64,000 nucleotides of DNA, taken from assembly GCA_964016885.1 (NCBI GenBank), contig OZ024742.1:185752001-185816000 (forward strand), in the 5' to 3' direction. The notes beneath the pieces were generated by a model, which was not told the DNA's origin, searched no databases, and saw only the letters and a program-made list of their open reading frames with translations. The DNA comes from Eledone cirrhosa (taxonomy: Eukaryota). Shown here one piece after another: positions 1-62,664 of the stretch; position 1 is the first letter of the stretch, and the number at the start of each line of letters is the position of its first letter. Position numbers and translations under genes: made by a program.

Positions 1-3000
1 TAGAACACATTACAGTACTGCTTTTATATCTGGGACACTGTTGCTGTTACATACACACAGATATACTAGAACACATTACAGTACTGCTTACATATCTGGG
101 ACAGTGTTGCTGTTACATACACAGATATACTAGAACACATTACAGTACTGCTTTTATATCTGGGACAATGTTGCTGTTACATACACACAGATATACTAGA
201 ACACATTACAGTACTGCTTACATATCTGGGACACTGTTGCTGTTACACACACACTGATATACTAGAACACATTACAGTACTGCTTTTATATCTGGGACAC
301 TGTTGCTGTTACATACACACAGATATACTAGAACACATTACAGTACTGCTTACATATCTGTGACACTGTTGTTGTTACATACACAGATATACTAGAACAC
401 ATTACAGTAATGTTTACATATCTGGGACACTGTTGCTGTTACACACACAGATATACTAGAACACATTACAGTACTGCTTTTATATCTGGGACACTGTTGC
501 TGTTAGACACACAGATATACTAGAACACATTACAGTACTGCTTTTATATCTGGGACACTGTTTCTGTTACACACACACAGATATACTAGAACACATTACA
601 GTACTGCTTTTATATCTGGGACACTGTTGCTGTTACATACACACAGATATACTAGAACACGTTACAGTACTGCTTACATATCTGGGACACTGTTGCTGTT
701 ACACACACACAGATATACTAGAACACATTACAGTACTGCTTTTATATCTGGGACACTGTTGCTGTTACATACACACAGATATACTAGAACACATTACAGT
801 ACTGCTTACATATCTGGGACAGTGTTGCTGTTACACACACACAGATATACTAGAACACATTACAGTACTGCTTACATATCTGGGACAGTGTTGCTGTTAC
901 ATACACAGATATACTAGAACACATTACAGTACTGCTTACATATCTGGGACACTGTTGCTGTTACATACACAGATATACTAGAACACATTACAGTACTGCT
1001 TTTATATCTGGGACACTGTTGCTGTTACACACACAGATATACTACAACACATTACAGTACTGCTTTTACATCTGGAACACTGTTGCTGTTACATACACAG
1101 ATATACTAGAACACATTACAGTACTGCTTATATATCTGGGACACTGTTGCTGTTACATACACACAGATATACTAGAACACATTACAGTACTGCTTTTATA
1201 TCTGGGACACTGTTGCTGTTACATACACAGATATACTAGAACACATTACAGTAATGCTTCTATATCTGGGACACTGTTTCTGTTACACACACACAGATAT
1301 ACTAGAACACATTACAGTACTGCTTACATATCTGGGACAATGTTGCTGTTACATACACGCAGATATACTAGAACACATTACAGTACTGCTTTTATATCTG
1401 GGACACTGTTGCTGTTACATACACACAGATATACTAGAACACATTAGAGTACTGCTTTTACATCTGGGACACTGTTGCTGTTACATACACAGATATACTA
1501 GAACACATTACAGTACTACTTTTATATCTGGGACAGTGTTGCTGTTACATACACAGATATACTAGAACACATTACAGTACTGCTTACATATCTGGGACAC
1601 TGTTGCTGTTACATACACACAGATATACTAGAACACATTACAGTACTACTTTTATATCTGGGACAGTGTTGCTGTTACATACACAGATATACTAGAACAG
1701 ATTACAGTACTGCTTACATATCTGAGACACTGTTGCTGTTACATACACACAGATATACTAGAACACATTACAGTACTGCTTACATATCTGGGACAGTGTT
1801 GCTGTTACATACACAGATATACTAGAACACATTACAGTACTGCTTACATATCTGGGACAGTGTTGCTGTTACACACACACAGATATACTAGAACACATTA
1901 CAGTACTGCTTACATATCTGGGACAGTGTTGCTGTTACATACACAGATATACTAGAACACATTACAGTACTGCTTACATATCTGGGACACTGTTGCTGTT
2001 ACATACACAGATATACTAGAACACATTACAGTACTGCTTTTATATCTGGGACACTGTTGCTGTACATACACAGATATACTAGAACACATTACAGTACTGC
2101 TTTTATATCTGGGACACTGTTGCTGTTACATACACAGAGATATACTAGAACACATTACAGTACTGCTTTTATATCTGGGACACTGTTGCTGTTACATACA
2201 CACAGATATACTAGAACACATTACAGTACTGCTTACATATCTGGGACACTGTTGCTGTTACACACACACTGATATACTAGAACACATTACAGTACTGCTT
2301 TTATATCTGGGACACTGTTGCTGTTACATACACAGATATACTAGAACACATTACAGTACTGCTTACATATCTGGGACACGGTTGCTGTTACATACAGAAA
2401 TATACTAGATCACATTACAGTACTGCTTACATATCTGGGACACTGTTGCTGTTACATACACAGATATACTAGAACATATTACAGTACTGCTTTTATATCT
2501 GGGACACTGTTGCTGTTACATACACACAGATATACTAGAACACATTACAGTACTGCTTACATATCTGGGACAATGTTGCTGTTACATACACAGATATACT
2601 AGAACACATTACAGTACTGCTTACATATCTGGGACACTGTTGCTGTTACATACACACAGATATACTAGAACACATTACAGTACTGCTTTTATATCTGGGA
2701 CACTGTTGCTGTTAGACACACAGATATACTAGAACACATTACAGTACTGCTTTTATATCTGGGACACTGTTTCTGTTACACACACACAGATATACTAGAA
2801 CACATTACAGTACTGCTTTTATATCTGGGACACTGTTTCTGTTACACACACACAGATATACTAGAACACATTACAGTACTGCTTTTATATCTGGGACACT
2901 GTTGCTGTTACATACACACAGATATACTAGAACACGTTACAGTACTGCTTACATATCTGGGACACTGTTGCTGTTACACACACACAGATATACTAGAACA

Positions 3001-6000
3001 CATTACAGTACTGCTTTTATATCTGGGACACTGTTGCTGTTACATACACACAGATATACTAGAACACATTACAGTACTGCTTACATATCTGGGACAGTGT
3101 TGCTGTTACACACACAGAGATATACTAGAACACATTACAGTACTGCTTACATATCTGGGACAGTGTTGCTGTTACATACACAGATATACTAGAACACATT
3201 ACAGTACTGCTTACATATCTGGGACACTGTTGCTGTTACATACACAGATATACTAGAACACATTACAGTACTGCTTTTATATCTGGGACACTGTTGCGGT
3301 TACACACACAGATATACTACAACACATTACAGTACTGCTTTTATATCTGGGACACTGTTGCTGTTAAATACACAGATATACTAGAACACATTACAGTACT
3401 GCTTATATATCTGGGACACTGTTGCTGTTACATACACACAGATATACTAGAACACATTACAGTACTGCTTTTATATCTGGGACACTGTTGCTGTTACATA
3501 CACAGATATACTAGAACACATTACAGTAATGCTTTTATATCTGGGACACTGTTTCTGTTACACACACACAGATATACTAGAACACATTACAGTACTGCTT
3601 ACATATCTGGGACAATGTTGCTGTTACATACACGCAGATATACTAGAACACATTACAGTACTGCTTTTATATCTGGGACACTGTTGCTGTTACATACACA
3701 CAGATATACTAGAACACATTAGAGTACTGCTTTTACATCTGGGACACTGTTGCTGTTACATACACAGATATACTAGAACACATTACAGTACTGCTTACAT
3801 ATCTGGGACACTGTTGCGGTTACATACACAGATATACTAGAACACATTACAGTACTGCTTTTATATCTGGGACAATGTTGCTGTTACATACACAGATATA
3901 CTAGAACACATTACAGTACTGCTTTTATATCTGGGACACTGTTGCTGTTACATACACACAGATATACTAGAACACATTACAGTACTGCTTACATATCTGG
4001 GGCACTGTTGCTGTTACATACACACAGATATACTAGAACACATTACAGTACTGCTTTTATATCTGGGACAATGTTGCTGTTACATACACACAGATATACT
4101 AGAACACATTACAGTACTGCTTACATATCTGTGACACTGTTGCTGTTACATACACAGATATACTAGAACACATTACAGTAATGTTTACATATCTGGGACA
4201 CTGTTGCTGTTACACACACAGATATACTAGAACACATTACAGTACTGCTTTTATATCTGGGACACTGTTGCTGTTAGACACACAGATATACTAGAACACA
4301 TTACAGTACTGCTTTTATATCTGGGACACTGTTTCTGTTACACACACACAGATATACTAGAACACATTACAGTACTGCTTTTATATCTGGGACACTGTTG
4401 CTGTTACATACACACAGATATACTAGAACACGTTACAGTACTGCTTACATATCTGGGACACTGTTGCTGTTACACACACACAGATATACTAGAAAACATT
4501 ACAGTACTGCTTTTATATCTGGGACACTGTTGCTGTTACATACACACAGATATACTAGAACACATTACAGTACTGCTTACATATCTGGGACAGTGTTGCT
4601 GTTACACACACACAGATATACTAGAACACATTACAGTACTGCTTACATATCTGGGACAGTGTTGCTGTTACATACACAGATATACTAGAACACATTACAG
4701 TACTGCTTACATATCTGGGACAGTGTTGCTGTTACACACACACAGATATACTAGAACACATTACAGTACTGCTTACATATCTGGGACAGTGTTGCTGTTA
4801 CATACACAGATATACTAGAACACATTACAGTACTGCTTACATATCTGGGACACTGTTGCTGTTACATACACAGATATACTAGAACACATTACAGTACTGC
4901 TTTTATATCTGGGACACTGTTGCTGTACATACACAGATATACTAGAACACATTACAGTACTGCTTTTATATCTGGGACACTGTTGCTGTTACATACACAG
5001 AGATATACTAGAACACATTACAGTACTGCTTTTATATCTGGGACACTGTTGCTGTTACATACACACAGATATACTAGAACACATTACAGTACTGCTTACA
5101 TATCTGGGACACTGTTGCTGTTACACACACACTGATATACTAGAACACATTACAGTACTGCTTTTATATCTGGGACACTGTTGCTGTTACATACACAGAT
5201 ATACTAGAACACATTACAGTACTGCTTACATATCTGGGACACGGTTGCTGTTACATACAGAAATATACTAGATCACATTACAGTACTGCTTACATATCTG
5301 GGACACTGTTGCTGTTACATACACAGATATACTAGAACATATTACAGTACTGCTTTTATATCTGGGACACTGTTGCTGTTACATACACACAGATATACTA
5401 GAACACATTACAGTACTGCTTACATATCTGGGACAATGTTGCTGTTACATACACAGATATACTAGAACACATTACAGTACTGCTTACATATCTGGGACAC
5501 TGTTGCTGTTACATACACACAGATATACTAGAACACATTACAGTACTGCTTTTATATCTGGGACACTGTTGCTGTTAGACACACAGATATACTAGAACAC
5601 ATTACAGTACTGCTTTTATATCTGGGACACTGTTTCTGTTACACACACACAGATATACTAGAACACATTACAGTACTGCTTTTATATCTGGGACACTGTT
5701 TCTGTTACACACACACAGATATACTAGAACACATTACAGTACTGCTTTTATATCTGGGACACTGTTGCTGTTACATACACACAGATATACTAGAACACGT
5801 TACAGTACTGCTTACATATCTGGGACACTGTTGCTGTTACACACACACAGATATACTAGAACACATTACAGTACTGCTTTTATATCTGGGACACTGTTGC
5901 TGTTACATACACACAGATATACTAGAACACATTACAGTACTGCTTACATATCTGGGACAGTGTTGCTGTTACACACACAGAGATATACTAGAACACATTA

Positions 6001-32753: not shown

Positions 32754-33206
32754 AACCAAATAAATATATATATTTTTTAAAAAAAATAAGACTTCAGTTG
32801 CATTTTCGATTTCATCCCTTTTTCTTTATATATATATATATATATATTCCATATAAAGCGTGAAACTAATAAAACTTTTGTACCTCTCTTTTGTGTTTCC
32901 TTGGACTGGATTTTTTTACCTTAAGTTGCCGCACATCGCTCGGTTTGTTGTTTTTTTCGCTGTTTTCTCTTTTCTTCCCTTTTCCCTTCTATTTCCCTCC
33001 CTCCTCCGTTTTCCCAATAACTTACCCAGTTATTGAACGCTCTGGAGGTACATATCTTGTCTTTAGAGCGTTGAAATATCCGAGACCACCAGTAGACAAC
33101 TAATGAGGGAAAGTCACCCCCCACCCCCACCCCGTTCTTGCTTTCTTCTTATTCTCATACCATTTTAAGCTACCTTAAATGGCAACTACACACCCAATCC
33201 TATTCT

Positions 33207-33254: not shown

Positions 33255-33490
33255 TTATTAAAATAACAGATTAAAGTTTAAGCAAAGAATCGCTGCTTTC
33301 ACCCTTAACGGGATCTTCTGAAACTCAGAGTTTCAGAAGATCCCGTTAAGGGTGAAATCAGCGATTCTTTGCTTAAACTTTAATCTGTTATTTTAATAAA
33401 TATTTGCTCTACGGTTCTTATATATTCGATATATATTTATCCTTATCGAGCCCTCTTTGGATTTTAGTCTTCAAATTTATTATTATTACT
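33250..33490. mobile_element. Short foldback of the PLE pLTR family also present at 39455-40684
   Basis: Arms 33250-33326 and 33329-33402 are palindromic; about 85-nt tail; nearly identical to the ends of the 39.5-40.7 kb element; flanked by (TA)n. Confidence 0.85.
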
Positions 33491-33549: not shown

Positions 33550-36500
33550 TCATAATCATCATCATCATTTTACGTCCGCTTTTTCCTGCTTGCAAGGGTT
33601 GGACGGGTCCTATTCAGCACAACATCTGTCCACTTGTCACGGTCCTTCGTCATATCCTGCATGAGTTTCAGTGATCTGAGGTCTGCTCTCACCACCTCCG
33701 CCCATATTTTTCGTAGTCTACTTCTACTGCGTCTTCCTTCTACTGAGATTTCTTGGCAATTCTTTACCCAGCGGTCATCCTCCATGCGCATCACATGTCT
33801 ATACCATCTCAGCCTTCTCTCCTGCACACCACAACTTATCCCTCTTATACCCAGTTTCTTTCTCAACTCATCTATGCTTGGTCGTTCACGCACATTGGCA
33901 TTGCACATCCAACGGAGCATGCTTGCTTCATTTCTCTCCAGCCGTCGCATAGCCTCTGCGGTTGCTGCCCATGTCTCATTACCATGCAGCATCGTGCATC
34001 TCACACAGGCATCATATTACCGTCCTTTCATACGCAGGGAGAAACCCTTCTTTGTCAACAGGGGAAGCAGCTCCCTAAACTTCTTCCAACCCGTCCTTAT
34101 TCTAGATACTATGGCCTCGGAACACCCCTCTCCCATGATAATCTGATCACCTAGGTACCGGAAGCTATCAACCACTTCTATAGAAACCACCTGCATTGGA
34201 AAAATGTGTCTATCACTGCGATTACTACTGCCAACTTTCCCTGTACATCTACTGCATACATAGTTTTCCCTACCTGTTTGTTTGCCTGCTAACCCACTAC
34301 ATCTCTTGTGTACCCAAGATCTGCATTGCGTACATTTTATGGAATTTATGACAGTTCCTTTCCTACATATCGAACATGGCCATTTCCCTGATGGAATCAG
34401 AGTATCGTCCTCTCTTCTACTCATCAACACTTTTGTCTCGGCTATGTTCACTCTCAGACCTCTTGATTCCAACTGCTGTTTCCATAGCCAGAATTTATTC
34501 TCTAGCTCCCCTACTGATTCTGCTATAAGAACCAGATCATCAGCATAGAGAAGTTCCCATGGGCATCCAGTCAAAACTCCTCTGTTATAGCTTGGAGGAC
34601 TATAATGAACAAGAGCGGGCTGAGGACCGAACCCTGATGTACACCTACTTGTATCTGGAAATCCTCACTAACCTCCATTCATCCTCTCACTTTACTGACA
34701 GCACCCCTGTACATAGCTTGCACTGTCCTCACAAGCTATTCCTCTACACCTAGTTTCTTTAGGGACCACCAGATGACAGATCGGGGTACCCTATCAAAGG
34801 CCTTCTCTAGGTCAACAAAAGTATAGTGGCTTATTCTTCTCTAAGAACCTCTCTTGCAGTTGCCTCACTAAGAAGAGGGCATCTGTTGTACTTTTCCGAG
34901 GCACAAAACCAAACTGCATCTCATCTAATTTGACCCTTTCTCTAATCAGTTGCGCTAATATTCTCTCTGCCACTTTCATAACCTGATCCATCAGCTTTAT
35001 GCCCCTATAATTACTCCTCTCCAGAGTATCCTCTTTACCTTTGTAGCAATTTATGAGAATACTGCTGCACCAGTCTTTGGGTATGACACCACCAGATATA
35101 GCTTGATTGATGATGCGTGCAACCAGTTTAGTGTCTACTTCTCCTGATGCCTTCAGCATCTCAGCAACTATCCCCGACGGTCCAGCAGCCTTACCATTCT
35201 TCATTTCCTTAATTTCCTCTTGTACCCTATATTCGTCAATCACAATAGCTGGTCCCTCTGTTGGGTCTACTGGGGGTAATTTCTCTCTCTCCCATTCGTT
35301 CTCCACATTTATCAGTCTCTCATAATGACATTTCCAAGCCTCCTTTTCTTTATCATTCGTGACACTAAGTACACCGGCATGATTCCGGACACACTTATCT
35401 TCAACAACATCCTGATTTGCACTGACACACTGCCTTGCAATGCGGAACACCGCACGTATCTGATCTTCATGTGGCAGAACATTGGTAAACCTCCTACTCT
35501 CAGCCTCCCTGCGTGCTAAGTACACCTGACGTCTAGCTTCTCTCTTAGCGGCTGTGTATCCTTCTCTACTCCCACCATTTTTCCAAGCCTTCCATGCCAG
35601 TATTTTGTCTCTAATGGCCCTATCTACCGTGCTGTTCCACCACCAGGTCACTCTCTGTCTGGTTGAAGCTCTGCCCCAACCACAAGTTTCTTCAGTAGCC
35701 TGCAGTAAGTTGTCACGCAAGAAATTCCAGTTATCATCTATGTCATACAACTCTAAATCGTCTTCTTTTTCGTCATACACATCTTGAAGGGCTTTGCTAA
35801 ATTTATATTTTAATGAAAGGTCTCTTAGCTGCCAGACCTTTCTTTTCCACACCTTCCTGTTTGTCTCATTCTTTCTCTTACTGAGATGTCACTAACGACT
35901 AACCTATACTGTGGGGTACATTCTTCCCCGGGGTATGCCTTAGTATTTGACACCATCTGTCTGTCTCGCTGTCTAACTAGTAAGAAGTCAATCTGGCTTA
36001 TGTGCTCGCCTGATTTGTAGGTTATTAAGTGGTTGGTAGGCTTCTGGAAGTTAGTGTTGCAAATGGTTAGTGCATTTGCATCACAAAATTCAACAAGCCT
36101 TACTCCTTCTTCATTTCTTGAGGCGTAACCGTGTCCACCATGTACCCCAGTGTATCCATCCTGGAGCTGTCCAACATGACCATTGAAGTCCCCTGCTAGC
36201 ATAACGATGTCCCTGTCCTCTGTCATTGAGGCTGTTTGTAAAAGTTGCTCATAAAAGCAGTCTTTCTCTTCTTTACCTAGGCCTAGGAGATGATTGTCGG
36301 TAGTCTCTTGCCTACAACTAATCTAAGCTTAATTATTCTATTACTAACTCTAACTACCTCTATTGTCTTATTGATCCATCTCTCAGTCAGTAATATGCCC
36401 ACCCCGCCTAACCCATCATCATTATCCACCCAGAAAAGTTATAACTACGATGTTTGCCTGCGATTCGTCTTGCAGAGGCGCCTCTCCATCTCACCTCTTG

Positions 36501-36870
36501 TACACAGCACACATCCACATGCCTTCTTTCCAGCATCTCCGCTATCTCACCAGATCTACCTGTTAAAGTGCCAACATTATGTGTGGCAACTCTGAGATGC
36601 GACGTCTCGTTCTTTTTCCTGTTGTGCGATTGCTTGATGACGGTCGTGGGGTTCTCACACATAGCCTCACTAGCCACCCCACTACCGTGCGCAGTCCTAA
36701 CATGTTTAGTGTTATTGCTGTTTACGCAGTTGTTGTGCGATTGCTTGATGACGGTCGGGGGCTTCTCGCACATGGCTGCACCAGTCACCCCACTACCGTG
36801 CGCAGCCCTAACATGGTTAGTGTTATTGCTGTTTACGCAGTTGTTGCAAATCTCATTCGTTGTGCTCATA
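33548..36870 (-). mobile_element. RTE-clade LINE, near full length, frameshifted (APE endonuclease and RT)
   Basis: APE motifs THNVGTL, CCVQEVRW, GDFNGHVG and QIDF; RT motifs NYRGIKL, QFGF and LLYADDLVL; C-terminal RRLRWY; (TGA)n 3' tail at 33548-33568. Confidence 0.92.
36621..36845. repeat. 111-bp direct duplication in the RTE 5' region
   Basis: GTTGTGCGATTGCTTGATGACGGTCG at 36621 and 36732; in-frame 37-aa duplication in ORF 36408..36869. Confidence 0.9.
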
Positions 36871-36984
36871 GTTTTTGGCAGTAGTATATATACTGTTTGG
36901 ATGCCCTTTCTAACACCAGCACCACTTTACAGCATGGACTAGGTGCTTTTATTCGTGCCACCAGTACTAAGCATATCATATATA

Positions 36985-37793
36985 TATAAAAAACATGAAG
37001 AAAGAAGAATACTGCGTGGTTGCACATGGGTTACATATGATAAAAATAGTCCTTCGTCAGTGATTTTCCAACCATCATTGGTATTTCATCGCATTAAAAA
37101 TCATATACCTCAGGTTGGTGCGAGCAATAACTAAAAAAGGTTATTGGGACCAGTAAATCGCGTAAAGCGAGGGGGACAAGTGAACAACATAGAAGGATAA
37201 AAGCAAACCAAAGAAAGGAAAAAAATAAGCAACATGGTAGTCCTGGTCAGCATAAACTGGGTGGATTTCATGAGCGAAAGGTACAGACGTCCGACGTGAG
37301 TGAGATGTAAGCAACAAGAGACCCACTGTAAGCCGAAGGGGAGAAACAGAGAGTAAGTGAGTGGAAGTGCGAGGAAGCGGTCAGTCGAGAGAAAGTCTAA
37401 CTGACAGAGCGGGCGAGAGAAGGTGAGAGAAACAGAGAGAACGGGGAAGCTGTAAGAGAGAAACAGATAAACGCAGCCGAGGTGAATATATATAAAAAAC
37501 ATGAGAAGAAAGAAGAATACTGCGTGGTTGCACATGGGTTACATAGGATAAAAATAGTCCTTCGTCAGTGATTTTCCAACCATCATTGGTATTTCATCGT
37601 ATTAAAAATCATATACTTCAGGTTGGTGTGAGCAATAACTAAAAAATGTTATTGGGACCAGTAAATCGCGTAAAGCGGGGGGGACAAGTGAACAACATAG
37701 AAGGATAAAAAGCAAACCAAAGAAAGGAAAAAAACAAGCAACATGGTAGTCCTGGTCAGCATAAGCTGGGTGGATTTCATGAGCGAAAGGTAC
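36985..37793 (-). mobile_element. ORF-less 508-bp tandem element (1.6 units) between TA tracts
   Basis: 36988-37285 repeats at about 37494-37793 (TCGTCAG at 37054 and 37562); related to 48912-49720. Confidence 0.8.
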
Positions 37794-38073: not shown

Positions 38074-38161
<88 letters not shown>

Positions 38162-38167
<6 letters not shown>

Positions 38168-38529
38168 AAATCAAAAGATGATTAAAAGAGTTCCATGTAT
38201 TTTATTATGCGCATTTCAAAAACAAATATCATCATGGGATGATATTTGCGTTCTCATCAGATAAAATAGGGAGACATGATATGAAGCTTAAAAAACACTT
38301 GCGAGCAGTGAAGTGTTAAATCAACATGTCTCCCTATTTTATCTGACGAGAACGCAAATATCATCCTATGATGATATTTGTTTTTGAAATGCGCATAATA
38401 AAATACATGGAACTCTTTTAACCATCTTTTGATTTTATATTATTTATACTCCAGTCCTATAAACTGTTGAGTGCTACTTATCCGATATTTGCATTGCTTT
38501 ATTGTGCTACAATAAAACTCACCTCCTAC

Positions 38530-39454: not shown

Positions 39455-39460
<6 letters not shown>

Positions 39461-40684
39461 TAAAATAACAGATTAAAGTTTAAGCAAAGAATCGCTGCTT
39501 TCACCCTTAACGGGATCTTCTGAAACTAACAAAGTCAATCTGTAAACGCAGAAGTTAATATTTCAAAAACCGTTGCAACCGGAGGAAGACAGGAAGACGA
39601 TACTTTGGTTCGTGGAAACGTTCCCTGGCAAAGAACTGGAAAAAACGAATATAATACGTCATTATTTGGAGCGGTGAAAAACAATTCGACATCAATAATT
39701 ACTACTCCTCCATCACTTTACCACTTCTCCTTAGAGCTATCAATTTCGCTAAAACACTCACAGTGGTTAAGGATTTCGAAGTTGATGTCATCCTCAATGC
39801 CCGTAAGTCGGTGATTAATTTCGACGACTCTATTTGGATTAAAAAATCTAATAGTACCCCATTCGACGTGAGTATGGGCGCCAGCGATTCTGCGGAGGTT
39901 ACTGATCTTATCGGCCTTTTCCTTCTTTTCTCTATCAAGGACGAATTCCCCAACGCGGGCGGCGGTTTGTACCGTGATGGTGGTCTTTTGACCATGACTA
40001 AGTGCGGTCCACGTGCTTGCGACAGGTTCAGAAAAGAACTCACAGCTTCTTTAAAGGCTTCAACCTCTCTATACAGGTTGAGGCCAACCTCTCGGTCGTT
40101 AATTACCTGGACATTACCCTCAATTTATTGAATGGCATGTATTACCCGTATAGAAAGTCGAATGATACGCTTAATTACATAAGTAAGCATTCCAACCATC
40201 CTGCCAGCATAACCAAGAACCTGGTAAGAAACGTTTCTTTGAGGCTTTCCCGTCTATCTACTAACGAGCATATTTTCAACGACCATTCCACATATTACAA
40301 TGAAGCTCTTGCTCGGAGTGAATTTGTCGATAAGGAGCATATACAGAGTACGAGAATAGACCTAGAAGAAATAGATCCCGACGCATTATATGGTATAACC
40401 CACCATATAATATGGAGGTGGCCACACCTTTAGCTAAGATATTTCTATCCCTTATTACGAAGCATTTTCCCCCTACAAACGGTTTTTGAAATATTCACTT
40501 CTGCGTTTACAGATTGACTTTGTTAGTTTCAGAAGATCCCATTAAGGGTGAAAGCAGCGATTCTTTGCTTAAACTTTAATCTATTATTTTAATAAATTTT
40601 TGCTCTACGGTTCTTATATATTTGATATATATTTATCCTTATCGAGCCCTCTTTGGATTTTAGTCTTCAAATTTTTATTATTAC
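39455..40684 (+). mobile_element. Penelope-like retroelement (Naiad-like RT), truncated and internally deleted, with inverted pLTRs
   Basis: RT motifs FDINNYYSSIT, FDVSMGASDSAEVTDLIGLFLL, GLYRDGGL and NYLDITLNL; thumb YISKHSNHP; pLTR at 40478-40684 with an inverted copy at 39455-39574; no GIY-YIG seen. Confidence 0.85.
40510..40582 (+). ncRNA. Type I hammerhead with CAGAAGA (U4A) core
   Basis: AGATTGA..AGTTT-CAGAAGA-T-CCC-ATTAA-GGG-T-GAAA-GCA..TGC-TT-AAACT-TTAATCT; further copies at 39469-39542(-), 33275-33325(-) and 33329-33379(+). Confidence 0.65.
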
Positions 40685-48911: not shown

Positions 48912-49720
48912 GAATAAAGTGGTCCTTCATCAGTGATCTTCGAACCATCATGGGTATTTCTTCGCTTTAAAGACCAAGGACCACTTTATTCATATGTAAC
49001 CCATTTGCAACCACGCAGCACGTTTATTCTCATATTTACACATATATTTTCCCCCGCTGTGACCCGTCTATTTCGTTCTTACTGCTTCCTCTTTCTCTGT
49101 ATCTTTACCCTCTCTAACAGTCACTCTCTCTGTTAGCCTCTTCCTCACCCTTCACTCACTCACTCTCTGTTACTACCTCTCCTCCTCCTCATTCTTCCCG
49201 TTTGACCTGTGCGTAATTCTTTTCTTTCGCACCCTTGGTCTGGCAGGTCGCTTTTTTTCTCTCTCTCGTCTACGATTTCACAGAACTTATGTTCACCGAA
49301 TTCACAGACTAGATCCCTTCTTCCTCCCGTTAGACCTGTACGGAATTCCTTCCTTGCTCACATTCCAACCAGGTTTGATGGTCTTTATTCTCTCTCGTTC
49401 ACGATTTCACCGAACTTATATTCATGGAAATTTGGGACTTGACTCCTTCTTCCTCACTTTTCGTTGCTTCACCATCTTTGTTTGTTTACACTCTCGCTGT
49501 CCCCTTTATTTACGTGTCCCAACGACTTTTTTTAGCCGTTGCTCGCACCCACAGAAGAAATACCCATGAAAGCGAAGAAATACCCATGATGGGTGCTCGC
49601 ACCCACCGAAGAAATACCCATGAAAGCGAAGAAATACCCATGATGGTTGGAAGATCACTGATGAAAGACCACTTTATTCATATGTAACCCATTTGCAACC
49701 ACGCAGCACGTTTATTCTTA
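48912..49720 (+). mobile_element. More-than-unit-length ORF-less element with a short inverted 5' arm, in (TA)n
   Basis: Terminal direct repeat GACCACTTTATTCATATGTAACCCATTTGCAACCACGCAGCACGTTTATTCT at about 48979 and 49667; inverted arm 48912-48976; internal short duplications. Confidence 0.8.
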
Positions 49721-51920: not shown

Positions 51921-52169
51921 TATTCGTACGTCCGTCAATAATACACAGATATATATATATATAAGTATGTATGTATATATACGTACATACATATATGTAT
52001 ACAGACGTACAGTAGTATGTATATATATACACACAAATATATATGCACGTATCGGCCTACCGAACATTTATTATAATGCTCGGTTTGTTTGTTTGTAAAC
52101 AAACAAACAGCCCGAATTATGCCGTACAGTGTTTAGGCAACCACGTCACCTTTTTGTTCAACACTGACA

Positions 52170-52228
52170 CAGGAACGATGTACTAGTTTCAAGCTCATTA
52201 GCTATCGTCAGCATCGTATACCTTCCTG
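52170..52228 (-). ncRNA. Type I hammerhead ribozyme, copy 1
   Basis: Reverse complement of the motif at 52432-52490, with a small change in loop II. Confidence 0.85.
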
Positions 52229-52431
52229 CCAGATGGTTGAACGTCTGAAAGTATATACTTTCCTTATGCATATTAACGGCTGAGCAGCCTAATTTGCATA
52301 TCGAGTGAGTTCAGTCGGCCGGGCGCACCGAAAACGATAAATGGAATAGAATGAAACGATATACAAATTAGGCTTCTCAGCCGTTAATATGCATAAGGAA
52401 AGTATATACTTTCAGACGTTCAACCATCTGG

Positions 52432-52490
52432 CAGGAAGGTATACGATGCTGACGATAGCTAATAAGCTTGAAACTAGTACATCGTTCCTG
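52432..52490 (+). ncRNA. Type I hammerhead ribozyme, copy 2
   Basis: CAGGAA..ACGATG-CTGACGA-T-AGCT-AATA-AGCT-T-GAAAC-TA-GTA-CATCGT-TCCTG; predicted cleavage after 52479. Confidence 0.88.
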
Positions 52491-52881
52491 TGTCAGTGTT
52501 GAAAAAAAAGGTGACGTGGTTGCCTAAACACTGTACGGCGTAATTCGGGCTGTTTGTTTGTTTACAAACAAACAAACCGAGCATTATAATAAATGTTCGG
52601 TAAACCGATACGTGCGTATATATATATATATGTGTGTACATGTATGTTTGTATATACATACTACTGTACGTCTGTATACATATATGTATATACGTATACA
52701 TACATACTTACATTTAAGTAAGTGCCGTACTAAGAGTGAGAAATGAAATTTCGTTTCATTCTATTCCATTTATCGTTTTCGGTGCACCCGGCCGACTGAA
52801 CTCACTCGATATGTAAATTAGGCTGCTCAGCCGTTAATATGCATAAGGAAAGTATATACTTTCAGACGTTCAACCATCTGG

Positions 52882-52940
52882 CAGGAAGGTATACGATGCT
52901 GACGATAGCTAATAAGCTTGAAACTAGTACATCGTTCCTG
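52882..52940 (+). ncRNA. Type I hammerhead ribozyme, copy 3
   Basis: Identical to copy 2 and 450 bp downstream; predicted cleavage after 52929. Confidence 0.88.
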
Positions 52941-53330
52941 TGTCAGTGTTGAACAAAAAGGTGACGTGGTTGCCTAAACACTGTACGGCGTAATTCGGGC
53001 TGTTTGTTTGTTTACAAACAAACAAACCGAGCATTATAATAAATGTTCAGTAAACCGATACGTGCATATATATATGTGTGTACATGTATGTATATATATA
53101 TACAAACTACTGTACGTCTGTATACATATATGTATGTACGTATACATACATACATACTTATATATATATATATATATATGTGTGTACATGTATGTATATA
53201 TATACATACTACTGTACGTCTGTATACACATATGTATGTACGTATACATACATACTTACATTTAAGTAAGTGCCGTACTAAGAGTGAGAAATGAAATTTC
53301 GTTTGATTCTATTCCATTTATATATATATA

Positions 53331-57448: not shown

Positions 57449-60400
57449 ATCCCCAATAGGGGGAGGCGCCACAAATGGGTTGTTTAATACCCCGTAGATA
57501 GAACAACCCTCAACTTCAGGAGCATGTTGTGCAAGTGCTCCTTTCTTCCTTTTGCTCTCTTCTTCAACCTACAGGTTTATATACAGAGAAGGCCCAATCA
57601 CTCGGGCCATTTTTGCCACATTCACCCACCTTTCAATAAATTTACTGGGGTGCAGTGCCTCTCTCTCCACTCCGATTCTCCTTCTAAAGAGGTACCTAAA
57701 GAAGGGAATGAGTTGTTGTCCGGAGAGAAAGACATCTGTCCTCAGTCCTCTCAATCTCGTCCACCATATAACCTCTTTCACCATAGCCACTATACAGAGG
57801 AAAACCGCTTCTCTTTCGTTTTTGAAAGAGGCTGGCGGTTTGATCCTAACTATGGACTCGGCAGTCAACTGGATTTGTCCCATACGCGACAGAAGTTGTT
57901 CTGCATAGTTCCACTCCCGGGCAGTATACAATTGCGTGCAAGACGGTTTCAATGTCCTGCTCGCATCTTGGACACGTCCTCTTGGAAGGATCCCTGCCGG
58001 GGCGTCCGTGCCTGTAGATCTTATCTCGAACGGGTAGAGCACCTCGGTAGCACTGCCAGGCCAGGGACCTCTGGAAGTTGTCCATAGGTCCCGGGCAGAA
58101 AGTCCTACCGAACAGCCTGGTGAACTCGTCGTCTTCGACGCCTAGAGTCTCCCCAAGAATGTCGAAGTGGAGTCTCCACTGATTGCTGTGCCCGCTTGAC
58201 AGAGGACTGTGAGCGCCTGGGCGCATTCAATGTGCCAGGCGCCCATCTTCTTCGGTCTGTCTTCGCTTGACCCAGGACTGCAGCTCTGTCAGCGAGACGA
58301 GCTGTGGGAAGGCCTGTCTCACAAACGGTGCCCACACGGGTTGGTCGGTGAGGAATACCTGAAGATGCCGTAGCCTCAGCGCATGTTTGCGCATAATTAG
58401 CCAGGGCATGCCCAGCCTTCCGTTGGAAGGGTGTTGACAGCAGACGGATCTCCTCACCAGTGGAGCCTGCTTCTTCCACAGGAACTGGAAGAGCATGCGT
58501 TCCATCTTAGTGAGGTATTCACGGGGACAAGGCACGACAGTCAAGCGGTAGTAGATGACGGACGCTATGAAAGTGTTCGCCACCTCCGCTCGACCTTTCA
58601 AAGTCAGTTTGCACTCTGCCCACTTCTGGGTGAGCGCAAATACCTTGGCCATGACCTCGTTCCAGTTTTTCTCCACCTGGAGGTCTGGACCGAACCAGAC
58701 CCCGAGCAATTTCACCGGTCCTTCCGTCCAGCATCCGACGACGCTGTCGGACGGCATCCGTTTGCCTCTCCACGTTCCGAGTTGCAAACCGACAGACTTG
58801 TTCGGGTTCAGTTTTTCTCCTGTGAACCTTTCGTATTCGTGTAGTACGTTGCCGATTACCTCGATTTCCGAGGTTTTCGACACCATTACCGTCACGTCGT
58901 CGGCATAAGCCGACGCCGCTTTTCACAGTCTCGGTTCTAAAGGGATGCCCTGCAAAAGCTCTAGCTTCCGCAGTAGTGGCTCTAGAGTCAATACGTACAG
59001 AATGGAGGAGAGAGGGCATCCCTGTCGAATGGAACGCGTGATTGCGAACGGCTCCGATAGGTAGCCGTTCACCTTGACCTTCGAGCAGATGTTGGTGTGC
59101 ATCGCCTTGATCCAGCCTCTGAAAACGGGACCGAAACCGGCCGCCTTGAGAACCGCTTCTAAGTATCGATGGTCGACCCTATCGAATGCCTTAGACTGAT
59201 CTAAATGGATCAGAGCCCCACCGAAGCCGGGTTTACACCCCACCCTCTCTATGATGTATCGCATGAGGTGGAGGTTGTCGTGTATGGACCGGTCGGGATT
59301 GCACACGTTTGCGCTTTCCCTACCAGGTTTTCGACGACAAGCGCCAGCCTCGTTGCTAGCTCCTTGGCCAAAATCTTTAACTCTGTGTTGAGCAGAGTTA
59401 TGGGCCTGAAATTGTTTATTTCGTGACCCTTGTTCTCGTCTTTCCTGATCAGCATTACTACGCCCTTGCCTGCAGAACTGGGAATTGTCCCGTTCTGCTG
59501 CCAATTGCAATAGACGGCTTCGAGGACGCCAGAGAACAAGTCCGGCATGCCTATGTAAAACTCATAGAGTAGACCATCTAGACCGGGTGATTTGCGTTTC
59601 CGGCAGCGGCCCAGAGCTTCCCGTATCTCAGTGGCTGTGATCGGTCTTTCGTAGAATTCAGCGTCCATGCTCGAGAGACGCGGCAGGCTGTCGAGGTATG
59701 AACCAAAGTCCATTGCCCCGTTCGGTGCACCGTTGTTCTGCTCAAACAGTCGCACAAAGTGCCGCTGAAATGCCGCGCACATCTGCCTGGGGTCAAGTAG
59801 CACACGTCCGTTTTGGTCTTTCAAAGACCGAATCGTGGACTTGTTGCCACTTTTCGCTTCCGCCACTCGTGCCCAGCTAACAGCTTTTGCTCCCTCGTTT
59901 CCTAGAGCACGTGATTTACTTCTGACCACGCAGCCTTCGTGTTTCGCGTCGAAGAACTGGTCCAGTGCCGTACTCTAGCTACGTTTCCACTCCTAAGCTC
60001 CTCTTCTACTTTGGTTACTAGTTTTGTTTCTGATTTGCTTTTCTCTAAAGTTAATTCTCTTCTAAACCCTATCGATTCTACTCTAATTGCTCTCTTGAGA
60101 GAGTACCACCATCTATTGTTGACGATGGCTCCCGTCAACTCTTGCTTAACTAATCTAATTATCCGTTCACTGTAGGCTTTTCATGCTGGCAATGACACGT
60201 TCAGCTTCCAGTATCCGGGTCCTTGTCTATGTATTCTATCACGGTTGACTATGCAGATGACTAGTTTGTGATCTGAATAGGCAACCATGTGCATTTGTGG
60301 ACAGCTTAACATCTTCTTGTCTTTTTCTCTAATGAAAAACCTATCTACATACGATCTAGATGTCCCGCTGCGGTTTGCCCACGTCCACTGTGGTGCAGTC

Positions 60401-60745
60401 GGGAAATCTATCTAGTCGATATCTATCGGCCAGTTGGAATTAGCCGATTAGATTTTTGAGGCTGTTGCACCCCGCTCTACTGGGACATGCTCCCCAATAG
60501 TCCCATCATGCATCTAGGATACCATTCCAGTGCCCCACTAAAAGCAAGGAGCGAGACGTTCCCAGATAAGACTCCAGACGCTGAAAGAAGTCTGGCCGCG
60601 ATTGTGACTGCCCGGTCGGGGCATAAACAGCCACCAGTCTGAAGGCTCCACCTCCAATACTGTTCACGTCTATTACTACCAGTCTACCCTCCGGGTCTAA
60701 GGGTACTTGCTGTACTTCGAGATCCAGGTTTTCCGAAACAGAGCG
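57449..60745 (-). mobile_element. Tx1/L1-clade LINE copy 1 (partial APE, RT, C-terminal CCHC), frameshifted, 5' truncated
   Basis: VAVYAP, GHWN, KSPGLDG, NFRPITLLN, LDQSKAFDRV, RQGCPLS, YADD and CPRC..ETVLHAIVYC. Confidence 0.92.
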
Positions 60746-60795
60746 ATAAGATAGATAGATAGGTAAGTTGGTAGATGGATAGATAGATAGATAGA

Positions 60796-62110
60796 TTTCT
60801 TTATTAGCCACAAGGGCGCAACAAGAAAGGGGACAATACAAAGACATGCCGGGGATTTTACATACAGTCGTGTAAAAAATATAAAAACAAACAATTTCAA
60901 CAATCGAAATCCCCAATAGGGGGGAGGCGCCACAAATGGGTTGTTTAATACCCCGTCGATAGAACAACCCTCAACTCAAGGAGCGTGTTGTGCAAGTGCT
61001 CCTTTCTTCCTTTTGCTCTCTTCCTCAACCTACAGGCTTATAAACAGAGAAGGCCCAATCACTCGGGCCATTTTCGCTTCATTCACCCACCTTTCAGTAA
61101 ATTTACTGGGGTGCAGTGCCTCTCTCTCCACCCTGATTCTCCTTCTAAAGTGATACTTAAAGAATGGAATCAATTGTTGTCCGGAGAGAAAGGCATCTGT
61201 CCTCAGTCCTCTCAACCTCGTCCACCATATAACTTCTTTCACCATAGCCACCGTACAGAGGAAAACCGCCTCTCTTTCGTTTTTGAAAGAGTCTGGCGGT
61301 TTGATCCTTACTATGGACTCGGCAGTCAACTGGATTTGTCCCATACGCGACAGCAGTTGTTCTGCATAGTTCCACAGGTCGCTTACGCTCGGGCAGTGTA
61401 CAATTGCGTGCAGAACTGTTTCAATGTCCTGCGCACATCTTGGACACGTCCTCTTGGAAGGATCCCTGCCAGGGCGTCCGTGCCTGTAGATCTTGTCACG
61501 AACCGGTAGAGCTCCTCGGTAGCACTGCCAGGCCAGGGACCTCTGGAAGTTTTCCATAGGTCCCGGGCGGAAAGTCCTACCAAACATACTGGTGAGCTCA
61601 TCGTCTTCGACGCCCAGAGTCTCTCCGAGCACGTCGTCGCCCTTGTAACGTACAATCCCTCTATAGAATGTCGAAGTGGAGTCTCCACTGATTGCTGCGC
61701 CCGCTTGCCAGAGGACTGTGAGCGCCTGAGCGCATTCAATGTGCCAGGCGCCCATCGTTTTCGGTCTTTTCTTCACCCAGGACTGCAGCTCCGTTAGCGA
61801 GACGAGCTGTGGGAAAGCCTGTCTCACAAACGGTGCCCACACCGGTTGGGGGTCGGTGAGGAATACCTGGAGATGCCGCAGCCTCAGCACATGTTTGCGC
61901 ATCATCAGCCACGGCATTCCCAGCCCTCCGTTGGAAGGGTGCTGACAGCAGACGGATCTCCTCACCAGCGGAGCCTGCTTCTTCCACAGAAACTGGAAGA
62001 GCATGCGTTCCATCTTGGCGAGGTGTTCACGGGGACAAGGCACGACAGTCAAGCGGTAGTAGATGACGGACGCTATGAAAGTGTTCGCCACCTCCGCTCG
62101 ACCTTTCAAG
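60796..62110 (-). mobile_element. Tx1/L1-clade LINE copy 2, 5' truncated, intact 3' ORF and 3' UTR, flanked by (GATA)n
   Basis: Open 359-aa ORF 61030..62109 is highly similar to copy 1; 3' end AATAAAGAAA-(TCTA)n; (GATA)n at 60748-60796 and 62111-62134. Confidence 0.92.
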
Positions 62111-62664
62111 GATAGATAGATAGATAGATAGATATTTAGACCAAAATTTCAAACATTTATACTTTGACGATAGTTCCCAAATAAATAATTCTCTTTTTTT
62201 TTTTTTGTTCGAAACTCAACGCCTGTGGGAAAACGGGAAAACTTTCTTATGTTGTCTGAAAGCTGATATTCATATCTAGTTCCCACTAAAAACTATTGCA
62301 TTGACCATGTTGGAACCAGACTTAACTCTATTATAACTTTTACTAACTTTATTTCTAAACAGTATCGAAGACAACGTTCGTGTTTAGATTATTTTGAAAG
62401 ACTACCTGCAACATATCCTCCAACATCAGCTGGACATTGCGACGTATCCTTTGTTACTCTAAAGATTAATATTCAACAAAGACAACGCAACTCTCGTGGT
62501 GTAAATGTAAACGTCTTTTTTCTTTTGTTTAACACTCATTGATCGCTATCTACCTCATAACATGTCACATCAAGATCATAATGTATGTGTCAGATGAGGT
62601 ATTACAAAGGCAGTCATGCTTTACAAATATCAAACAATGCATCGATACCTTTTTCTATATAAGG

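Follow-up and report, generated by a model that had tools for sequence, protein, structure and literature searches.

Can the parts of a hammerhead ribozyme, arranged along a repeat in an order that fits none of types I-III, still form a self-cleaving RNA? The question is raised by a stretch of 64,000 nucleotides (nt), hereafter the window, of the Eledone cirrhosa contig OZ024742.1 (GCA_964016885.1, positions 185,752,001-185,816,000), in which a preliminary description noticed hammerhead core parts on the minus strand of a repeated element, here family f1. Comparison of the f1 motif with its relatives in the window and in the 3.0 Gb of genome searched points to a conserved, covarying fold with a full hammerhead core in the non-circular order cleavage site-GAAA-CUGAnGA and with a stem II completed by the 5' leader. 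The motif is real, highly abundant and structurally well supported; its catalysis is predicted. Transcripts probably cleave themselves after A37104, and the element would be a non-autonomous retrozyme of Penelope type, likely derived from Naiads.

The motif and its fold

The pieces that first drew attention are all present on the minus strand as reported: GGTAT-A (37109-37104), TGATTTT (37103-37097), GAAATACC (37087-37080), AAAATCA (37067-37061) and CTGACGA (37060-37054). A relative at 49 kb in the window (family f2) keeps GAAATACC and CTGATGA, together with TGGTCTT/AAGATCA. However, the 56-nt span originally assigned (37054..37109) is incomplete. The f1 motif covers 104 nt (37048-37151, minus strand), all its strands lie within this distance and the linkers between them measure 0-3 nt. 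It comprises seven helices. Features beyond those described earlier are the leader strand of stem II (37123-37119), a helix (IIIx) linked through a predicted kink-turn (k-turn), a closing helix P0, a hairpin P1 and a third family of the same fold (f3) at about 33009-33115 on the plus strand.

Read 5' to 3', the strands follow one another as P0a, the P1 hairpin, stem II 5', IIIx 5', GA, stem III 5', H17, stem I 5', UAA and stem II 3', and then 11.1, GAAA, stem III 3', a 3-nt bulge, GA, IIIx 3', stem I 3', CUGAnGA, 10.1 and P0b (Table 1). The hammerhead core is complete, with CUGAnGA and GAAA, an A15.1-U16.1 pair and an H17 that is never G. In terms of the blocks S, G and C the order is S-G-C; types I-III are CGS, GSC or SCG with a nested three-way junction, and the early view that the order matches none of them is borne out.

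Stem II, previously described as not evident, proves to pair with the 5' leader: 89-93% of cells in the alignments below are paired, and 2-3 pairs are changed on both sides beyond single copies. A canonical stem II directly behind CUGAnGA was considered and rejected, since at most 1 bp can form there, and the nucleotides in question are taken up by P0. Stems I, II and IIIx would meet in a second three-way junction with linkers of 0, 0 and 3 nt.

Between stem III and IIIx lie a 3-nt bulge and, next to it, G-A and A-G pairs, an arrangement that fits the standard k-turn as defined in PMC5061560. The standard letters occur in f1 and in 16 of 26 representative sequences, the short-strand G being replaced by U in the other 10, and in f3 a U likewise stands where this G is expected. 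These letters served among the landmarks for choosing alignment rows, and they hold in unfiltered copies too. In the proposed model the k-turn bends stem III back so that IIIx can reach the ends of stems I and II. Hairpin P1 is optional, since it is absent from f10 (L280-L304), an old family with GAA between CUGAnGA and P0. Folding of a single sequence recovers P0, P1, IIIx and III (z = -2.2), the crossing stems I and II being beyond what such folding can show. An Rfam scan of the window gave no match at the gathering score.

Conservation and covariation

The preliminary description drew its covariation from two families; the comparison now extends to 22-26 representatives. Alignment rows are the most intact copy per subfamily, chosen by hand from 204 unique copies in 64 clusters, with truncated and most decayed clusters left out. 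Alignment A2 has 26 rows and 77 ungapped columns, with f10 present as five copies; A1 has 22 rows and takes in P0 and P1, without f10. Standard pairs are formed by 87.7% (A2) and 90.2% (A1) of cells, against 31-48% when partners are slid by 1-3 columns, and 19 of 25 (A2) and 27 of 37 (A1) pairs are changed on both sides. In the stems around the core the share of paired cells is 84% (I), 89% (II, solely via the leader) and 96% (III), and all three show compensatory changes. Moreover, the nine best of 2,926 column pairs in A2 (G-test with average product correction) are all proposed pairs, from IIIx, I, III and II. Invariant pairs rank low in this test, as expected. Pairing is weakest at the distal end of stem I, at 10.1-11.1 and at the pair after the G-A pairs, which is non-canonical, as k-turns allow.

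The core is kept as well. When copies were collected irrespective of their core, the majority sequences of f1, f2, f3, f5, f6 and f10 (six of six families) retain CUGAnGA, GAAA and U16.1, and the closing A15.1-U16.1 pair of stem III is U-A in 26 of 26 representatives. In 171 copies H17 is A (137), C (33) or U (1), and G in none. Within the helices, G-U exceeds A-C on the motif strand (37 against 15 and 30 against 17).

Table 1. Strands of the f1 motif and related insertions, in window positions (double-changed, changed on both sides; cells and representatives, those of the alignments)
Feature	Positions	Strand	Remarks
P0 5' strand GGUCC	37147..37151	-	pairs with 37052-37048, closing the motif; 86% of cells paired, 3/5 pairs double-changed
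Hairpin P1 CAAUAAC/GUUAUUG	37125..37146	-	95% paired, 5/7 pairs double-changed; absent in f10
Stem II 5' strand UCGCA, from leader	37119..37123	-	pairs with 37093-37089; 89% paired; pairs 2-36 and 3-35 rank 8 and 9 of 2,926
Helix IIIx 5' strand CCAACC + U	37112..37118	-	pairs with 37074-37068; contains both E<0.05 pairs
Predicted k-turn short strand GA	37110..37111	-	UA in 10/26 representatives
Block S: stem III 5' GGUAU + H17 (A at 37104)	37104..37109	-	predicted cut between 37104 and 37103; stem III 96% paired
Stem I 5' UGAUUUU + UAA linker	37094..37103	-	stem I 84% paired, 6/7 pairs double-changed; linker invariant in 26
Block G: stem II 3' UGCGA, 11.1 (U), GAAA, stem III 3'	37080..37093	-	
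Predicted k-turn long strand (3-nt bulge AAU, GA) + helix IIIx 3' UGGUUGG	37068..37079	-	
Block C: stem I 3' AAAAUCA, CUGACGA, 10.1 (A), P0 3' GGACU	37048..37067	-	
f1 insertion	36989..37792	-	about 1.6 tandem units, 5'-truncated, (TA)n at both ends
Second f1 motif copy, upstream partial unit	37556..37659	-	508 nt away, CpG-decayed; two G-to-A changes break stem II
f2 insertion	48912..49718	.	inverted 5' piece 48912-48976 (minus) + forward unit 48977-49718
f3 copy of the same fold	33009..33115	+	decayed here (CTAATGA); family majority intact

Abundance in the genome

The pattern GAAA-N7-GA-N14-CTGAYGA has 24,051 exact matches in the genome against 219 for the reversed pattern, so that chance does not account for the motif; a version without the commonest stem III gives 5,636 matches against 27 for its control. 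The DNA searches gave 730-3,786 first-look candidates in each of five families and 218 in f10; 40 were scored in every family. In 800 kb of arbitrarily chosen stretches a profile search found 10 copies, while a descriptor based on pairing gave nine matches (six family members and three chance-like), compared with one in 2.4 Mb of shuffled sequence. Many matches of about 50 nt that start at query position 459 were disregarded, probably being an edge artefact of the search.

The scored matches of f6, all 40 of them listed at 100% identity over 201 nt and spread over many contigs, show that this family is very young. At G000:C1:81.56-81.68 Mb at least 14 f6 units, identical or nearly so, form a long young array.

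Outside this genome, one narrow pattern had no match in metagenome contigs. Viral contigs gave 44 matches to the core pattern, in which the pairings are absent by eye and which look like chance; they were not scored. No RNA dataset was listed as containing the f1 unit. Three non-RNA contig runs of one sample do contain f1, with depth highest on the motif, and are counted as no support, since this may be the source sample.

The mobile element

The motif resides in an element that had been described as an open reading frame (ORF)-less repeat of more than unit length in (TA)n, and this holds across families. The units are tandem, pyrimidine-rich and without ORFs or any shared frame, carry one motif each and are (TA)n-flanked. 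Their spacing is mostly 500-690 nt, with unit lengths of about 523 (f1), 636 (f2), 560 (f3), 514 (f6) and 620-690 nt (f8/f9); the f1 unit measures 508 nt in the window and 521-527 nt in most copies. Both f2 copies of the window lack block S, one because it ends at the inversion junction and the other because the block is replaced by a 54-nt duplication, whereas f2 copies intact elsewhere in the genome do carry this cleavage-site block.

The 3' ends of f1, f2, f6 and f8/f9 are found in (TA)n at one of two distances from CUGAnGA, about 15 or 55-65 nt downstream; in f3 and f5 they are farther out and more scattered. Copies occur on both strands at 59 of 155 loci, and 5' truncation points are scattered. 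The (TA)n 3' ends, the two-strand loci and the 5' truncation are habits of Penelope-like elements as described by Craig et al. (2021, PMC8557442), whose marks there are (TA)n, tandems, truncation and inversion. Indeed, a (TA)n target, 5' truncation, an inverted 5' piece and two 3' ends about 40 nt apart, all found here, are those of a non-autonomous Penelope-like element. The predicted cut coincides exactly with two inversion junctions (window 48976; L175), a number too small to carry any meaning.

The rest of the window contains further repeats. Positions 1-29656 form a satellite array of 457 copies of a 64-bp unit with 92% matches. Long near-perfect inverted repeats with arms of 120-350 nt, several of which adjoin (TA)n, lie at 38155-38448, 39455-40597, 52016-53094 and about 33260-33400, and probably represent other elements, of Penelope or DNA type, copied in truncated and inverted form. 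Broken endonuclease/reverse transcriptase (RT) frames resembling those of long interspersed nuclear elements, of two kinds and named by eye from their translations, occupy 34020-36926 and 57500-62150, both on the minus strand.

Relation to Naiads and a candidate mobiliser

Naiads are Penelope-like elements that encode GIY-YIG and RT. Canonical hammerheads were not found in them according to Craig et al. (2021, PMC8557442), although an 'HHR_half_core', with parts 35-50 nt apart, was flagged in some. The present elements resemble them in their (TA)n targets, partial tandems, 5' inversions and short tail; moreover, the same fold can be discerned by eye at the 3' ends of several Naiad consensus sequences. 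In contrast to Naiads they encode nothing, and no intact Naiad was found in the genome searched.

Naiad ends were read by eye, rather than computed, in File S5 of Craig et al. (PMC8557442). As read there, the S-G-C order with a leader-supplied stem II appears in Naiad_Obim, Naiad_Ovul, Naiad_Amil, Naiad_Aacu, Naiad_Anas and three further records. P0 and P1 are discernible too, in unrelated sequence, in Naiad_Obim, Naiad_Ovul and three Acropora Naiads. The octopus ends appear to keep the k-turn and the P1 loop of f1b/f4, whereas the coral ends use another joint. Naiad_Esco seems to have the S-G-C order without a clear leader, while Naiad-2_Nbra and Naiad-3_Nbra, from the nematode Nippostrongylus, and three further records look like the intact-block form CSG. 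Altogether, a non-circular wiring of the hammerhead was seen by eye in at least 14 of 54 consensus sequences, a count that leaves aside motifs split across lines, other N7 letters and a few listed matches. The published octopus Naiad motif had no match in the present genome at 2 mismatches.

One Naiad remnant has a motif copy 2.6 kb downstream, but this is a (TA)n-flanked insertion of its own and was rejected as part of the remnant. An intact-looking Penelope-type RT frame of 750 aa lies at L110:5739-7988 (+), its C-terminal GIY-YIG-like domain (E = 0.0016) scoring below the Pfam cut-off. The same element also carries, at about 9681, a minimal hammerhead of canonical type I; at about 4124 its 3' part recurs in (TA)n as a long inverted copy. 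A related piece in L093 contains RWK and DKT, which Craig et al. (2021, PMC8557442) list as motifs of the Hydra clade. Judged from its sequence, the L110 element is a possible present-day mobiliser.

Proposed mechanism

Cleavage is predicted because the order, the 3-nt linker between stems I and II and the helix joining them match type SGC, which cleaves in vitro (PMC10085705). Each motif in a tandem transcript would fold once CUGAnGA and P0b have been made, and would then cut after H17. By analogy with known retrozymes, on which the steps after folding are modelled, two cuts would release a unit-length RNA whose ends could re-pair through P0, II, IIIx and III and be ligated into a circle. A Penelope-type RT/endonuclease acting in trans may then start at a nicked (TA)n target, with priming about 15 or 55-65 nt beyond CUGAnGA, and copy the circle into it for more than one unit.

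Several observations weigh against this reading. Under an all-against-all, tree-aware null, E<0.05 is reached by only two pairs in A2 and one in A1, in a home-made, R-scape-like test applied to related families and to a structure derived from the same sequences. Of the representatives, only 20 of 26 and 16 of 22 have a canonical pair at the core-adjacent 10.1-11.1, where A-U, U-A, G-C and G-U all occur. Motif identity is not clearly above that of the unit body in 4 of 10 family pairs, and several families, f5, f6 and f10 among them, were first spotted through the core or motif, a route by which dead-core families would be missed. The break inside block C violates the assumption of uninterrupted blocks made by Eckert et al. 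(PMC10085705). The 5' truncations do not accumulate at the predicted cut: of 120 rows, some loci being counted under two family queries, 5 end at -1 to +3, on a smooth decay. Such a distribution means that the RT often passes the site; it fits circular or uncut templates and gives cleavage no support. As to the origin of the element, the Naiad fold, itself read by eye, does not extend to every Naiad, none being seen in the incomplete Naiad_Omin or in the record preceding Naiad_Amil. Naiad-like RT in the present genome consists of short or broken remnants (97 protein matches; 12 motif matches, 10 of them RT-like), and 0 of 31 Naiad-remnant loci have a motif of their own, although f6 is very young.

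Alternative explanations

The fold could be real and yet be a scaffold derived from a hammerhead, which no longer cuts, or cuts only with a k-turn-binding protein, and is kept as a recognition signal for a Penelope-type RT. The mismatched 10.1-11.1 in 6 of 26 representatives, the absence of any clustering of 5' ends at the cut and the position of the motif next to the priming sites would all agree with this. So would the joint: a U-U pair after the G-A pairs is a trait of box C/D k-turns. The f1 motif has U-U at this place, and box C/D k-turns are described as folding only with L7Ae (PMC5689011). Against a mere scaffold, all families share the same catalytic positions, although they differ in N7, the bulge and the helices, and H17 changes between A and C and is never G, the pattern of selection for cleavage. 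A scaffold without cleavage of its own seems unlikely.

The ribozyme might also assemble as a dimer, between neighbouring tandem units or separate transcripts. The units are indeed tandem, axolotl retrozyme hammerheads are reported to cut better as dimers (PMC7229834), and pairing in cis and in trans, including pairing between tandem units, looks the same to covariation. Yet all strands lie within 104 nt, with linkers of 0-3 nt, P0 closes both ends, and a canonical stem II from the CUGAnGA of one unit to the GAAA of another would have at most 1 bp. Of the earlier proposal of a non-nested or trans-assembling ribozyme, the first half is supported, the S-G-C order being that of type SGC, whereas the second is not needed; assembly as a dimer is improbable.

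Conservation through coding, promoter or other DNA-level function, the counter-explanation named in the preliminary description, or a chance likeness within one repeat family, is very improbable and already largely refuted: although chance ATG frames of 53-134 aa overlap the unit, no Rfam family matches and the families share ancestry, compensatory changes are spread over seven helices that cross one another, the families have no reading frame in common, frame 1 is interrupted by stops within the motif, and the same pairings appear, by eye, in unrelated Naiad sequences.

Comparison with known hammerheads and retrozymes

Self-cleavage within a transcript, the reading favoured here, places the motif beside the permuted hammerheads of Eckert, Friedrich, Weinberg and Weinberg (2023, PMC10085705), who defined the blocks S, G and C and validated the cleavage of types SGC and CSG in vitro. 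In these types stems I and II are linked by about 3 nt and joined by a helix; the direct joining of stem III to this helix is raised there as a question. According to that paper, SGC (HRIMA-1 and an SGC variant) comes solely from metatranscriptomes and CSG from two metagenomic sequences, and the sequences are without origin in the genomes of known organisms, apart from one bacterial GCS candidate. It is the only report on type-SGC hammerheads that the literature search returned. Searches on hammerheads with Penelope and octopus, on Naiads since 2022 and on kink-turns gave no report of the present motif among the papers listed, in a coverage that excludes most subscription papers.

The present motif shares with type SGC the S-G-C order, the 3-nt linker between stems I and II and the joining helix, to which IIIx corresponds topologically. 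In type SGC, however, stem II directly follows CUGAnGA, whereas here its 5' strand is the leader and block C is interrupted. The split-block motif would thus work like type SGC, yet it fails one of its defining features. It also differs in that the predicted k-turn connects both strands of the joining helix with stem III, in the addition of P0 and P1 and in its animal genome host; the words 'k-turn' and 'kink' were not found in the supplement text of Eckert et al. Type CSG has the same cyclic strand order, with a UUAA/UAA linker between stems I and II, but is opened between stem III and the joining helix, with intact blocks. Joined end to end, SGC, CSG and the present motif give one cyclic order. 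The motif may be regarded as the same ring with a new opening, which falls inside block C, between 10.1 and 10.2, and is closed by P0.

Animal retrozymes lacking long terminal repeats (non-LTR retrozymes) are described as carrying type I hammerheads only, in units of about 300 nt, and their circular RNAs have been demonstrated (Cervera and de la Pena 2020, PMC7229834; Li et al. 2026, bioRxiv 10.64898/2026.07.22.740005). Like them, the elements of E. cirrhosa are tandem units without ORFs, each with one predicted hammerhead; they occur dispersed in high copy number and are tied to Penelope-like elements. They differ in their units of 500-690 nt and in a motif that is non-circularly permuted rather than type I. 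The terms 'octopus', 'cephalopod' and 'k-turn' were not found in the texts of these two papers.

If this interpretation is correct, non-circularly permuted hammerheads move from environmental RNAs of unknown origin into animal chromosomes, in about 24,000 copies, and the apparent lack of hammerheads in Naiads is explained. A block assumed to be indivisible could be split, and the predicted k-turn would answer the question of how stem III and the I/II helix are joined directly. Standard ribozyme descriptors miss a whole class. A wider proposal, plausible but somewhat short of an even prospect, is that non-circular hammerheads (SGC, CSG and split-block) are the native ribozyme of Naiads across animal phyla, one ring opened variously in each lineage. 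Here it would form a cage braced by a k-turn and switchable by a host protein of the L7Ae family, and would constitute one of the largest ribozyme populations of any animal genome, missed by searches for types I-III. The S-G-C order itself was already published in 2023; the split CUGAnGA block, the predicted k-turn and the setting in an animal retroelement are new.
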